Source: a virus
Virus record (IMG/VR): IMGVR_UViG_3300036791_000264
Coordinates: 50,523 to 114,522 of that record
Length of the DNA stretch: 64,000 nucleotides
Direction: 5' to 3' (one strand)
Part shown: piece after piece, positions 36,331 through 41,338 of the stretch
How the letters are laid out: each line of letters opens with the position of its first letter
How positions within the stretch are numbered: position 1 is the first letter of the stretch
The notes under the pieces: model-generated
The model's input: only the letters and a program-made list of their open reading frames with translations
Told to the model about the DNA's origin: nothing
Databases searched by the model: none
Made by a program: the position numbers and the translations under genes

Positions 36331-37038
36331 TTATACCCCGCACATGCGGCTGGTGTTCGGCCAGGCTCCCCAACCCACCTGGGCCTGGAGGTTCTGGTTC
36401 ACCCGAAGCTGCTCCGAATAGCTGTAGTCGGAAGGCAGGCCGGGGCCACCTCCACCGGCACGCCAGGCACTGATGGTGTCCTGGAAGGCGCCGTAGTAGC
36501 CGTTGCCAGTGTTCGTGGCCGGGTTGTTGCCCGACTCATGCTGGCCGATGCAGCCCCAGACACCACTGCCTCCACCCCCACCACCGCGGTAGCTGTGGGT
36601 GACTACCGGCTGGGGCGCAGGAGGTGTATAAGTCCTGGCAGGAGCCGAATAGTGCTGCACTGGAGGTGTGTATGACGGGGCGGGGGCGGGTAGTGACACC
36701 GAACCGGTGTAGCTCGCAGGCGGGATGTTGATGACGTCGCCTACATAGATCAGGTCCGGGTTGGGTGTGTGGTTGAAGGCTGCCAAACGGCTCCAGGCCC
36801 CTCCTGACCCCAGGTAGCGGACTCCGATGCTCCACAGCGTGTCGCCTGCAACGACCGTGTACTTCTGGAGCGTCGGAGCCGCTACCGCTACGAGGACGGC
36901 CTCTGGGGGCGAACCACTGGCCGGAACCACTGCGCTCACGCTGGTAGGGACGCTTTCCACAGGTTGTGCGGAAGCTGGGGATATAAAACAGAAGCTGCCG
37001 GCGACCAGGCCGGCAGCGGCAAGTAGAAGCCGCTTCAT
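36331..37038 (-). CDS. secreted LysM + resuscitation-promoting-factor (Rpf)-like transglycosylase
   Basis: signal peptide (..PASA); LysM YTVVAGDTLWSI...NPDLIYVGDVINIP; Rpf WGCIGQHESGNNPATNTGNGYYGAFQ...GWGAWP. Confidence 0.9.
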   Translation of the reverse strand: MKRLLLAAAGLVAGSFCFISPASAQPVESVPTSVSAVVPASGSPPEAVLVAVAAPTLQKYTVVAGDTLWSIGVRYLGSGGAWSRLAAFNHTPNPDLIYVGDVINIPPASYTGSVSLPAPAPSYTPPVQHYSAPARTYTPPAPQPVVTHSYRGGGGGGSGVWGCIGQHESGNNPATNTGNGYYGAFQDTISAWRAGGGGPGLPSDYSYSEQLRVNQNLQAQVGWGAWPNTSRMCGV

Positions 37039-37269: not shown

Positions 37270-37632
37270 GTGTCTACCGTGACCCGCATCGACACCGACC
37301 TTGACACTCGCTTCTTGCAGTGCAGGACGTACAACCACGCCTGGGAAGAGTTCGCCCCCATCGACCTCTACCCACCCACGTATGGCTGGAGGCTGTCCCT
37401 GCGCTGCATCCGCTGCACTACGGAGCGTCACGACGCCATCGCCTTCAACACCGGCAAGGTCATCGGGCGGCGGTATATTTACCCGGACGGCTACGCACAA
37501 AAAGGCGTGCCGAAGGTCGTGTTTCGTGAGGCCCTTTTTCAGAAGCTGCGTGTCAAACTGGAGAAGGCCAACGCTATCGGTGAGGAGGTACCTGAGCCGG
37601 CGAAGAGAGGGCGGAAGAAGGTGGCAGTGTGA
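37270..37632 (+). CDS. hypothetical Cys/His protein
   Basis: CRTYNHAW...LRCIRCTTERHD...RRYIYPDGY. Confidence 0.65.
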   Translation: MSTVTRIDTDLDTRFLQCRTYNHAWEEFAPIDLYPPTYGWRLSLRCIRCTTERHDAIAFNTGKVIGRRYIYPDGYAQKGVPKVVFREALFQKLRVKLEKANAIGEEVPEPAKRGRKKVAV

Positions 37633-38468
37633 AGGAGACATGCCGGATCCAGACGGTGACCCCGAAGATGGCCCAGGAGTGGCTGGAGGGCAACGTCGAC
37701 AACCGCAACCTGCGGGAGCCACGGGTGCTTGGGCACTCCCAGGTACTCCAGCGGGGCGAGTGGGAGTTGACCGGCGACTGCCTGGTCTTCGATGAGGATG
37801 GCACCCTGCTCAACGGCCAGCACAGGCTCTCAGCCGTGGTGGTGACCGGGATCCCGGCTCGCTTCGTCATCCTGCGGGGCGTGCCGGCCAAGGCCCAGGA
37901 GGTCATGGACACGGGCCTGTCCCGGACCCTGGGCGATCAGCTTCAACGCCGCGGCGTGCCCTACTACACCTACGTGTCGAGCGCCCTGTTCTGGCTGCAC
38001 CGCATGGCCTACAGCGAGGCCACTGGAGTGGCGCACTACGACAGCCCGTCCAACCGGCCCTCCTTCCGCCAGTTGCTGTCCATCTACGAGGCCAACAAGG
38101 AACTCTCCGACGAAGCCCCCAGGATCGGCAGGCACGTCAACAACCTCAAGGTCCGGGCCGGCGCCACCCTGGCGATCTACCACCGGCTCAAGCAGCTTGA
38201 TGCTGAAAATATCGATGAAGAAGTCGACCTATTTTTTGACAAGTTGGTGACCGGAGCCGAACTCAAGGCCAGTGACCCCATCTTCCGCCTGCGGGAGTGG
38301 TGCCTGGAGGACGCCGCCAAGCGGGCCACCAAGGGCCGTGCCCCGGACTATCGCTACGTGGCCTACGTGATCACGGCCTGGAACAAGTGGCGGGTCGGGG
38401 AGCCGATCCGCCAACTCAAGTGGGTCTACACGCCCACCACCAGGATGTCCTGGCCGGTGCCGGAATGA
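37629..38468 (+). CDS. ParB-like (DGQHR-type) domain protein
   Basis: VTPKMAQEWLE.N..NRNL, LLNGQHRLSAVV, MDTGLSRT. Confidence 0.75.
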   Translation: MKETCRIQTVTPKMAQEWLEGNVDNRNLREPRVLGHSQVLQRGEWELTGDCLVFDEDGTLLNGQHRLSAVVVTGIPARFVILRGVPAKAQEVMDTGLSRTLGDQLQRRGVPYYTYVSSALFWLHRMAYSEATGVAHYDSPSNRPSFRQLLSIYEANKELSDEAPRIGRHVNNLKVRAGATLAIYHRLKQLDAENIDEEVDLFFDKLVTGAELKASDPIFRLREWCLEDAAKRATKGRAPDYRYVAYVITAWNKWRVGEPIRQLKWVYTPTTRMSWPVPE

Positions 38469-39532
38469 CCGCGCTCCAGCCGCACCAGGCCCCTCTGGAC
38501 CGGACTGTGCGAGGCATCCTTGAGCGGGCTGCTATCCACGAGGCCATGCGGGAGACCGTGGACGAGAACCCTATCCCTCAGAGCGTGCTGGAGATGTCCC
38601 TGCGGCCCGTAGACGTCGTCCACATCCGCAAGCAGATGGTGGACTGGTGGTCAAAGCGGGGTGAGTGGCAGTACCGCTATGCCATGCAGGGCCGGCGCCC
38701 CATCGATGAGTCTCACCGTGAGAACGAGGTACTCGACGCGGAGGCGGCTCGGGGCTGGCTGGAAGACGGCTTCCGGGAGTCTGAACTGTTCTGGGTCTCC
38801 CCTGAGATGACCCAGTTGGTCTCGACCATGGCGCCCAGTATTCCGGACTGCATCCCGGAGCCACCCTGTCGGGACGGCTTCGTGGTCTTCGCCCGGTCTA
38901 TCCCTGGCCTTGACGCGGAGGCTGAGACCATCATCTACACCACGGCGTACATGTGGCGCACCGTGATCACCAAGGTTGGGGTCTGCTGGGGCATCGAGAC
39001 CTACGCCTGGCGTGACTTGATCCACGTCTGGCGCACGATGAGCGAGGAAGAGCGGCTGCTCTTCCGCCAGGTCATGCCCATGCGACTACACCCCACCGGA
39101 GGGTCGGAGTGGCCGGTGGAGAGCATGACCACCGATTTCTCCAGACTGCCCGCCAGCAATCCTCAGATGGAAGCCTCCATGCTGGAGGACCGGCGGGTAC
39201 TGGCGACCTTCTGGGCACTGTGTAGCCAGCGGATAGCTCACCAGGAGATGTACAAGCCTGATCGGGGCCTTCTGCGCCAGGCCAAGCGCGAGCGCTGGAA
39301 GTCGATACCCCCGGTACGGATCGTTCGATTGCGGGAACCCGCCACCCGCAGTCGAACTGGTGCTGGCTCGGACGTGGAGTGGAGCCACAGGTGGCTCGTC
39401 GGTTCTCACTGGCGGAACCAGTGGTACCCCGCGTCCAGCCAGCACCGCCCTAAGTTGATCGAGGCTTACCAGAAGGGGCCGGCGGATAAGCCCCTGATAG
39501 TACGTGAGACCGTGAAGGCCCTGGTGCGATGA
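38465..39532 (+). CDS. conserved-looking phage protein
   Basis: ATGA overlap at 38465; C-terminal HRWLVGSHWRNQWY...KGPADKP. Confidence 0.7.
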   Translation: MTALQPHQAPLDRTVRGILERAAIHEAMRETVDENPIPQSVLEMSLRPVDVVHIRKQMVDWWSKRGEWQYRYAMQGRRPIDESHRENEVLDAEAARGWLEDGFRESELFWVSPEMTQLVSTMAPSIPDCIPEPPCRDGFVVFARSIPGLDAEAETIIYTTAYMWRTVITKVGVCWGIETYAWRDLIHVWRTMSEEERLLFRQVMPMRLHPTGGSEWPVESMTTDFSRLPASNPQMEASMLEDRRVLATFWALCSQRIAHQEMYKPDRGLLRQAKRERWKSIPPVRIVRLREPATRSRTGAGSDVEWSHRWLVGSHWRNQWYPASSQHRPKLIEAYQKGPADKPLIVRETVKALVR

Positions 39533-39677
39533 GCTACTCCTCTCTCGTTGCTTCGTGGTTCCGGATGACCTTCTGCGTCTGCGGGGACACGAGGGCAGAT
39601 CACATTACGGATCGGCGTTGTCAAGTGGAGGGCTGTGACTGTAAGCGCTTCGCCAAGGTGAGGCTTACGGTGGTGCG

Positions 39678-40034
39678 ATGACTGAGGCGCCTAACCGTTG
39701 GTGGTACTGCATCTCCTGCTTCGCGGTCAACGATGGCCTGGAGGAGGGCCGGTGTTGGAACTGTGGTACCTCCTTCCCTAACAGGCGTAAGAACAAGCCC
39801 TGGTGCGAGATGGGCAAGGCGAAGTGTGACGTATGTGGCAATAGCTATGTGACCTGGACTCTGCCGGCTGGCACCACTATGACCGTGCCCGATGTGCTGG
39901 GGTTCTGCCCCTTCTACTTTGAGCATCACGGTGACAACGCTTACTTCCCACCCATGCTGCCCGCTGTCTACGTACTGGACGCCAACAGCTACCGCTATGA
40001 CGAGAAGCGCAAGAAGCTGGTGAAGATCAGGTGA
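39678..40034 (+). CDS. Cys-rich Zn-binding hypothetical protein
   Basis: multiple CxxC pairs. Confidence 0.55.
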   Translation: MTEAPNRWWYCISCFAVNDGLEEGRCWNCGTSFPNRRKNKPWCEMGKAKCDVCGNSYVTWTLPAGTTMTVPDVLGFCPFYFEHHGDNAYFPPMLPAVYVLDANSYRYDEKRKKLVKIR

Positions 40035-40305
40035 GCGACATCGACTGCGGTGACCCCGACTGTCTGATCTGTCATCCTCTGGTGACCAAGACAGGGCGGG
40101 TGTTAACTGAGGACGACATACAGGCTTTGGCCGATGAGGCTGAGCTTGGCTACGACTTTTGTGAACACGAGGACTATGTCGAGGCCGAGACCACGGGCGT
40201 CCTAATCCGGCGCTGCGGCAAGTGCAGCGCCACTACTGTGGCTGCTCCTGGTCTCTTTCCGGACCCCCTACCACTCTGGGTTACAAACAACAGAAAGGAA
40301 CGGCA

Positions 40306-40575
40306 ATGACAACACTGGTAGCTGAAGCGAACCGCGTCGAGGAGAGTGAGGTTGGCGTGATGGTCATCCTCGACCGGACTGGCGACACCCGTCATACCTG
40401 GGACCGGCGCAGCGAGGACGAGGTGCAGGTAATCCGCGACCTCTTTGAGCGCATGATCGCCAAGGGCTACCAGGCGTGGTCGGTGACTCGGAAGGGCGAC
40501 AAGGATCAGCGCATCACCGAGTTCGACCCCCAGGCTGAGAAGGTGATCTTCGCGCCAGCGCTGGTGGGTGGCTGA
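40306..40575 (+). CDS. 89 aa protein ending in GG (ubiquitin/beta-grasp-like candidate)
   Basis: GAAAGGA SD; ends ITEFDPQAEKVIFAPALVGG-stop. Confidence 0.65.
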   Translation: MTTLVAEANRVEESEVGVMVILDRTGDTRHTWDRRSEDEVQVIRDLFERMIAKGYQAWSVTRKGDKDQRITEFDPQAEKVIFAPALVGG

Positions 40576-40721
40576 TGAAGATCCGCATCACCATGGAGGT
40601 GGCTGAGGAGTACTCCGACGCTGACCATGACATGGGCGTCACTGAGGCGGCGTATGAGGAGATCACTGACGCCCTGTCCTCCTACGGGGATGACGTGGAG
40701 ATCAAGAAGGTGGTGGGCTGA
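40575..40721 (+). CDS. 48 aa acidic peptide (not in ORF track)
   Basis: TGATG coupling on both sides; MKIRITMEVAEEY...EIKKVVG*. Confidence 0.6.
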   Translation: MKIRITMEVAEEYSDADHDMGVTEAAYEEITDALSSYGDDVEIKKVVG

Positions 40722-41338
40722 TGCCGCACCAGACCTACTACCAGCAGTACTGCAACACCAGCGCCACCACCAACAGCATTCAGTACTACGTGCCTACGTG
40801 GACGAGCAACGCCAGCAACATCTCCACTCAGTGGTACCAGCCCACCCAGACCCACACCTACCAGACCGTCAACACTTACAGCAATGAGGTCTGGAACCAG
40901 TGGGTGATCATGGGCAATGGCACCATGACCATCAGTCCTCAGTCCGCTTTCCGGGTGGAGACTCCGGAGGAGATCGAGGCTCGGCGCGAGGAGCGGGCAC
41001 GAGAGGCTCAGGAGCGGGTCGCAGCCCGGACACGGGCCAGGATCTTGCTGGAGGACTTCCTCTCCGACGAGCAGAAGGAGGAGTTGAACTACCACAGCCG
41101 CTTCCATGTCACCGGGTCCAGGGGCCGGCGCTACTGCATCCGCACCAGCGGTCAAGCTGGCAACGTCGACCTGCTCAAGCCTGATGGAAAAGTCCAGGCC
41201 ACCCTGTGTTGCCACCCTCGGGGTTACCTGCCCGATGGGGACGCCTGGCTCATGCAGATGGTGGAGATCCGCCATGACGAGGAGCATTTCCTCCGCACGG
41301 CCAATGTCCACCGGGGTTCGCTCCCCATTGCCGCCTGA
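40721..41338 (+). CDS. protein with LCxHP...LPxxD motif, coupled to the GG-protein operon
   Basis: Thr/Gln-rich N-terminus; ATLCCHPRGYLPDGDAWLMQMVEIRHDEEHFLRTAN. Confidence 0.65.
   Translation: MPHQTYYQQYCNTSATTNSIQYYVPTWTSNASNISTQWYQPTQTHTYQTVNTYSNEVWNQWVIMGNGTMTISPQSAFRVETPEEIEARREERAREAQERVAARTRARILLEDFLSDEQKEELNYHSRFHVTGSRGRRYCIRTSGQAGNVDLLKPDGKVQATLCCHPRGYLPDGDAWLMQMVEIRHDEEHFLRTANVHRGSLPIAA

Follow-up and report, generated by a model that had tools for sequence, protein, structure and literature searches.

A widespread phage gene pair joining a Gly-Gly-terminated small protein to a partner with an invariant cysteine: possible acyl transfer without an activating enzyme

The locus considered here raises a question about protein tagging in bacterial viruses, namely whether a small protein terminating in Gly-Gly (GG) and a cysteine-bearing protein encoded after it act together in ubiquitin-like (Ubl) chemistry and, if so, by which route. 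The locus lies in a 64-kb stretch of DNA analysed as a whole, hereafter the window, which corresponds to the right-hand part of a 114.5-kb IMG/VR phage record, the genome being 98% complete with a G+C content of 62%. The locus itself comprises three plus-strand ORFs at 40306-41338, i.e., A (89 aa), B (48 aa) and C (205 aa), which a first-pass annotation of the sequence had regarded as a candidate phage Ubl conjugation module; the ORFs, coordinates, motifs and TGATG overlaps given there were all borne out by the ORF check. In window positions, the module and its upstream surroundings are as follows.

36331-37038, minus strand: LysM plus transglycosylase-like (Rpf-type) gene with a secreted-looking product (LysM E 1.6e-11, transglycosylase E 6.5e-13)
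37270-39532, plus strand: three genes upstream of the module matching PHROGs of no known function, namely phrog_4480, phrog_5931 (E 1.3e-56) and phrog_15934
39529-40309, plus strand: three small Cys-rich (zinc-ribbon-like) ORFs of 50, 118 and 92 aa, translationally coupled in series and directly upstream of A
40306-40575, plus strand: gene A, 89 aa, ending PALVGG then TGA (GG codons 40567-40572, stop 40573-40575)
40575-40721, plus strand: ORF B, a 48-aa acidic peptide ending KKVVG, inserted between A and C
40721-41338, plus strand: gene C, 205 aa, with LCCHP (161-166), LPDGD (170-174), Q179 and DEEHFLRTAN (186-195)
41066-41317, plus strand: C-terminal domain of C, residues 116-199, with a helix, a four-strand meander and two helices in the AF2 model
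41207-41218, plus strand: codons of Cys163-Cys164-His165-Pro166, at the end of strand 4

The sequence TGATG occurs at both junctions of the module (A/B at 40573-40577 and B/C at 40719-40723), the stop codon of the upstream 92-aa gene overlaps the ATG of A (ATGA, 40306-40309) and a Shine-Dalgarno sequence, GAAAGGA, stands before A at 40293-40299; the ORFs thus belong to a run of small genes coupled in translation. The Cys-rich ORFs returned only weak zinc-ribbon matches in Pfam (E 0.09 or worse), and relatives of some genes neighbouring the module recur close to the A-C pair in 7-8 related loci. Myovirus-type baseplate genes occupy the minus strand at about 45-51 kb of the window. As for the host, the presence of the Rpf-like LysM-transglycosylase makes an actinobacterium probable.

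Regarding protein A, the start codon assigned at 40306 (ATG) is backed by 27 of the 29 aligned homologues, which are 66-97 aa in length and have their first Met at this position. A word-indexed search returned 79 homologues with 53-100% identity, whose names are absent or evidently spurious (several, oddly, bear the JGI name "metallophosphoesterase superfamily enzyme"), and a profile search over 1.84 billion cluster representatives (clusters at 50% identity) extended the family to at least 2032 clusters at E 0.001 or better, with 627 at 1e-10 or better. Neighbours of A in the ESM Atlas are 82-85% viral and their clusters are all without names; judged from these searches, the family is large and mostly viral. 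It is almost missing from GenBank phages, where only two distant tblastn matches were obtained, in Rctr197k (197 kb) and LR756511 (595 kb). Neither A nor 65 diverse relatives gave a Pfam (E 1 or better), PHROG, PADLOC or PDB-sequence family match worth the name, weak matches to DUF7891 concerning 4 of the 65 (best E 0.0089) and none in the genome of the window. Matches to PPR proteins in the PDB were rejected, coming from the amphipathic helix only.

What stands out in this family is its terminus. The GG is invariant in the 29 close homologues aligned and C-terminal in 129 of the 149 best representatives of the 50%-identity clusters, while W32, G88 and G89 are the only invariant columns among the 65 diverse members, which are 33-49% identical to A. 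About nine of the 149 carry a tail of 1-6 residues after the GG, and seven end in x-G, so that the final Gly stays when the penultimate Gly varies. Such a GG terminus is far beyond chance.

The 48-aa peptide encoded by ORF B, which had been counted as part of the module, turned out to lie outside the conserved A-C pair. Only two homologues, 81-90% identical, were found among 5.8 billion proteins and none in 42 related loci, hence B is a local, lineage-specific insert. Its candidacy as a second GG-like modifier or mini-A was rejected, B being unmatched by the A profile and absent from relatives, and scans of B with Pfam, PHROGs and PADLOC gave no meaningful family.

The coupling of A to a downstream partner, also proposed from the window, extends well beyond it. 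With a degenerate DNA pattern for the C-terminus of A, 39 viral loci were retrieved, and local HMMs placed C downstream of A, on the same strand, in all 36 phage loci with more than 0.8 kb beyond A; in the seven loci without a C homologue, the flank beyond A amounts to 792 nt or less. The longest ORF of C abuts or overlaps the stop codon of A in 26 of the 36, i.e., with a gap of -8 to +3 nt in 19 loci and an overlap through start-codon ambiguity in seven more, the spacer being 17-625 nt in the other 10, window included. A C homologue likewise follows the A homologue in both distant GenBank phages, and the two genes are fused in P0217 (238 aa), where a linker joins a region matching the A profile (E 8e-30, residues 9-88) to one matching the C profile (E 6.9e-08, residues 126-223). 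The carriers comprise contigs of 12-165 kb, a 197-kb virus and a 595-kb megaphage. Conservation stops at these two genes, and the clusters that rank next are antisense shadow ORFs or are confined to at most eight loci. On this gene order, A and C are an obligate pair in phages. The pair is a genuine and abundant module undescribed in the searchable literature, in which no phage-encoded Ubl-plus-E2 pair was found; without an activating enzyme, it brings together two hallmarks of Ubl chemistry, namely the Gly-Gly terminus and one invariant Cys.

Protein C is organised, in the AF2 model, into a disordered Thr/Asn/Tyr/Trp-rich region (residues 1-73), a long helix (82-113) and an alpha+beta domain (116-199). 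It has 73 homologues, and its conservation was computed with weighting from 108 unique sequences, which fall into about 34 clusters at 62% identity; columns of the C alignment average 14% identity. Cys163 is 100% conserved and is the sole fully invariant residue, followed by Asp174, Leu181 and Ala194 (97% each) and Pro171 (94%), then less strictly by Asn195 (79%), Gln179 (74%), His165 (72%) and Pro166 (60%). The partner initially described by a Cys-His-Pro motif is thus characterised by an invariant Cys and a frequent His: the cysteine stands, whereas neither the His nor the Pro is fixed. Over the N-terminal ~70 residues (window 40721-40939, i.e., residues 1-73, and homologues in L003-L042), the sequence is unconserved and the composition conserved, with Thr 14%, Trp 5%, Tyr 5.8% and Lys 1.9%. 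Motifs of the type WxxW(N) repeat there, WxxW being found 40 times in 3306 residues as against about eight expected from the Trp frequency. In a Chloroflexota homologue (L044:1671-2072), the N-terminus is hydrophobic instead and probably membrane-spanning.

The C-terminal domain of C has a predicted alpha-beta4-alpha-alpha topology, and its best structural matches, though weak, are mostly RWD, UBC and UEV chains, including Mad1 and CENP-O/P, i.e., kinetochore-type coiled-coil-plus-RWD proteins; neither Foldseek against the PDB nor the VIA second look returned a clear match. At the level of profiles, 30 diverse members matched none of the UQ_con, RWD and Prok-E2 families or the PADLOC models for Cap2/ubiquitin-type enzymes at E 1 or better, and a profile search of C against PDB sequences returned no match. 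Scans of C with Pfam and PHROGs likewise placed it in no meaningful family. The earlier proposal of a non-canonical ligase or protease keeps a predicted fold that is weakly RWD/UBC-like, whereas its covalent chemistry is something we only infer.

As a rule, RWD and UEV domains bind partners without being catalytic, and a coiled coil often precedes them; many of the best matches of C, Mad1 and CENP-O/P among them, are of this kind. This argues for a reading that is possible though rather doubtful, in which A and C would be an obligate heterodimer held together non-covalently. The small, flexible GG end would owe its conservation to having to fit a narrow groove on the RWD-like domain, where its free carboxylate would be recognised, and Cys163 would be structural or have another role such as redox sensing. 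Neither E1, JAB nor any other enzyme linked to the pair was found, which is consistent with such a heterodimer, and the A-C fusion together with the GG-plus-tail variants shows that the terminus is not always free. On the other hand, a Cys conserved at 100% amid a mean column identity of 14% would be unusual for a purely structural residue, and keeping the final Gly when the penultimate one varies suits acyl chemistry better than packing.

Binding of A to C is itself supported by a controlled complex prediction, for which A and residues 78-205 of C were each supplied as an alignment. The modelled complex scored 0.73, against 0.12 for the best control; of 80 solved complexes 58 attain this mark, as do 2 of 110 mismatched pairs, counts that apply only roughly here, own alignments having been used. 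Three runs share at least 98% of contacts, with a partner pLDDT of at least 81. The modelled interface involves residues 20-27, 58-69 and 81-89 of A and residues 163-171, 174, 177-179, 181-186, 190 and 193-195 of C, the tail of A (83-89) touching C at 163-171 with a further contribution of strands 1, 3 and 5 of A; the model thus places the invariant GG tail on the invariant Cys and on nearly every conserved residue of C. With the sheet face and tail of A set against helix 2 and the Cys loop of C, the modelled arrangement recalls that of a closed E2~Ub. Supporting binding and silent on chemistry, the model is also compatible with the non-covalent heterodimer.

Whether A is a beta-grasp protein, as the first-pass annotation asked, is another matter, and the fold was not recovered here. 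The AF2 model of A (pLDDT 78.5) has a bb-a-bbb topology, i.e., strand-strand-helix-strand-strand-strand, with the helix at residues 37-52 followed by three strands and the Gly tail, and no ubiquitin, ThiS or MoaD chain was listed for it in any of four structure searches (Foldseek PDB, BFVD, VIA wide and VIA second look). The beta-grasp is a mixed sheet of order 2-1-5-3-4, in which strand 1 runs parallel to strand 5. In the coevolution analysis of A, made on a shallow alignment (Meff 215), the couplings link strands 3-4, 4-5 and 3-5, and the parallel strand 1-strand 5 pairing is absent from them. An hhalign comparison of the A profile with 13 genuine ThiS/MoaD proteins, drawn from five MAG genomes, aligned nothing but the final 15 columns (P 0.0057, probability 6%), corresponding to an acidic residue, a strand, Pro, x-x and GG. 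Pfam ThiS (PF02597) misses A, even in genomes where the same model finds true ThiS/MoaD genes.

The 15 aligned columns give A a C-terminal strand and tail motif like those of ThiS, MoaD and CysO, and they speak for a sulfur-carrier role. A would then have its GG adenylated and thiocarboxylated by a host MoeB/ThiF/MoeZ-type enzyme, and C would give or receive the sulfur through a Cys163 persulfide, the tail sitting in its pocket as it does in MoaD-MoaE or ThiS-ThiG. Such a scheme agrees with the tail-in-pocket geometry of the model, and the use of a host enzyme would explain the missing phage E1. The scheme is nonetheless highly improbable: the tail alone aligns, the remainder of A being unaligned, Pfam ThiS misses A, no match was obtained to the beta-grasp, which is the fold that E1 enzymes recognise, no ThiF-type partner is encoded and no sulfur-metabolism genes were found near the A-C pair.

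With respect to activation, neither E1/ThiF nor JAB had been recognised in the window, and Pfam extends this absence to the entire genome. The ThiF-type E1 (PF00899) is absent from this 98%-complete genome as well as from five other pair-carrying phage genomes, of which four are 100% complete, and Prok-JAB is absent from this phage genome. An E1-less pair nevertheless has a published precedent in E2-CBASS, a type II "short" CBASS made of the CD-NTase CdnG and a lone E2 (bioRxiv 10.1101/2022.05.25.493364; mLife 2026, PMC12948482). There, the E2 becomes covalently linked via Cys101, then Lys159, to the conserved C-terminal Gly of the CD-NTase, whose tail enters the E2; His87 is needed as well, and the E2 is able to remove residues after the Gly (10.1101/2022.05.25.493364; PMC12948482). 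The CD-NTase recruits the E2 by a C-terminal helix and a three-stranded sheet, and the E2 is built of a helix, four strands, a loop bearing the Cys near the last strand, and a helix (10.1101/2022.05.25.493364; PMC12948482).

As modelled, the anatomy of A and C matches this description point for point, namely (i) two proteins and no E1, (ii) a conserved terminal Gly on A, whose tail is placed at the Cys of C, (iii) a helix and three-stranded sheet, residues 37-85 of A, resembling the E2-recruiting element of the CD-NTase, and (iv) a fold of C with the Cys near the last strand and a His close by. Unlike in E2-CBASS, A is a stand-alone 89-aa protein rather than the tail of a nucleotidyltransferase (no such domain was found in A with Pfam), the pair is phage-encoded among unrelated small phage genes with neither an effector gene nor a defence-island context, C showed no sequence similarity to PADLOC or Pfam E2 models, its Cys stands two residues before the His, and the covalent link between A and C is one that we infer. 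Considering canonical ubiquitin systems, A is likewise a small alpha/beta protein with a terminal GG but is not recognisably beta-grasp, and no E1 or E3 accompanies it. Besides lacking a Pfam UQ_con or RWD match, C differs from canonical E2 and RWD proteins in the absence of the HPN and YPxxxP motifs, Cys163 preceding His165-Pro166, and from canonical E2 in its loop between strand 4 and helix 2, of about 8 residues as against about 30.

The explanation tentatively preferred, to which we give somewhat less than an even chance, is that A and C form an E1-less acyl-transfer pair like that of E2-CBASS. The GG tail and the strand 1/3/5 surface of A would dock on the RWD/UBC-like domain of C, where in the model the tail would meet the invariant Cys163, at the end of the last strand, together with Pro171, Asp174 and Gln179. 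C would be a lone E2-like enzyme whose Cys163 takes up the terminal Gly of A in a thioester, after which A might go to an amine of C, of a second A or of some target in host or phage, a phage E1 presumably playing no part; localisation or oligomerisation may be provided by the long helix of C and by the Trp/Thr-rich region at its N-terminus. Apart from the E2-CBASS precedent, this explanation is favoured by the GG, better conserved than any other feature in a family of at least 2032 clusters, by the short extensions after the GG in about nine representatives, which look like those of Ubl precursors, by the full conservation of Cys163 set against the low mean identity of the alignment, by the obligate pairing and the fusion in P0217, by the modelled complex and by the predicted topology of C with its mostly RWD, UBC and UEV matches. 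Against it stand the want of canonical E2 motifs or of an E2 family match in C, as far as sequence comparison can tell, the want of a beta-grasp or Pfam ThiS match in A, the fact that the phage encodes no adenylating enzyme, and five chromosomal A genes in Chloroflexota MAGs with no C gene beside them. Moreover, since most A proteins already end in a free GG, an acyl-enzyme route of the protease type lacks a peptide bond to spend.

For the same majority of A proteins, processing is not needed, which weighs on a further reading where C would be a Cys-dependent peptidase, either deconjugase-like or transpeptidase-like, and A its substrate precursor, a pro-domain-like inhibitor or a decoy, for instance in a phage counter-measure trapping or mimicking host Ubl/E2 defences such as Bil, Bub and type II CBASS. 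In the model, Cys163, the frequent His165 and the near-invariant Asp174 would fall within one surface patch touched by the tail of A, about nine of the 149 A representatives carry residues after the GG that need trimming, the lone E2 of E2-CBASS has been reported with a Cys/His-dependent protease activity, and the module is phage-borne. Yet the His is missing in 28% of the weighted C family and no peptidase family or PADLOC model resembling C was found, so that this peptidase or decoy reading is considered improbable. A papain-like triad in C was rejected, the Cys being at a strand end and two residues from the His, with no peptidase family match.

Returning to E1-less acyl transfer, its broadest form would be that many phage lineages encode a minimal, E1-independent tagging system, in which a GG modifier without a recognisable beta-grasp would be loaded onto the invariant cysteine of a divergent mini-E2/RWD-like partner and go on to host or phage targets; this is conceivable, if on balance unlikely. 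In the cited accounts, Bil and Bub operons are host-borne and combine a Ubl and an E2 with an E1 and a deubiquitinase/JAB (10.1101/2023.09.04.556158; PMC10557695; PMC11601596). Compared with them, the A-C pair would similarly be a Ubl plus E2 pair of the prokaryote world in phage-host conflict but, unlike them, is owned by the phage and comes with no ThiF-type E1 (six phage genomes) and no Prok-JAB (this genome). If the tagging system is real, it would represent a new branch of ubiquitin-like chemistry, virus-borne rather than host-borne. To our knowledge, the bacterial Ubl conjugation systems described so far, i.e., Bil, Bub and type II CBASS, are all host defences. Should the A-C link be covalent, bacterial viruses would tag proteins themselves and the E1-independent route reported for E2-CBASS would be extended; should it be non-covalent, the pair would define a large new family of tail-in-groove complexes on an RWD/UBC-like scaffold.

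Some variants of A and C were also observed. Tandem A-A proteins exist (P0253, P0264, P0274 and P0251), where the Gly terminus is missing from the first copy and the last copy terminates in GG, KG or RG. The chromosomal A subfamily of Chloroflexota (83 aa, ending VPRVVGG) is nearly identical across Chloroflexia/Ktedonobacterales MAGs (L045, L046, L048, L049 and L051), on contigs of up to 910 kb, and has a conserved context composed of a LuxR-type response regulator, a 120-aa coiled-coil protein, A, a DUF1345 membrane protein and a sulfatase. In virus Rctr197k (L001, KX853510.1; 1333-1587), A-C is preceded, about 1.2 kb upstream, by a transposase-like gene and a region annotated as CRISPR repeats, and a second C paralogue is found at L001:5156-5995. 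Two C paralogues also occur downstream of A in another phage (L011:847-2638), the second of which (451 aa) is a fusion of the C domain to a calcineurin-like metallophosphoesterase (Metallophos E 5.8e-08, residues 196-411).
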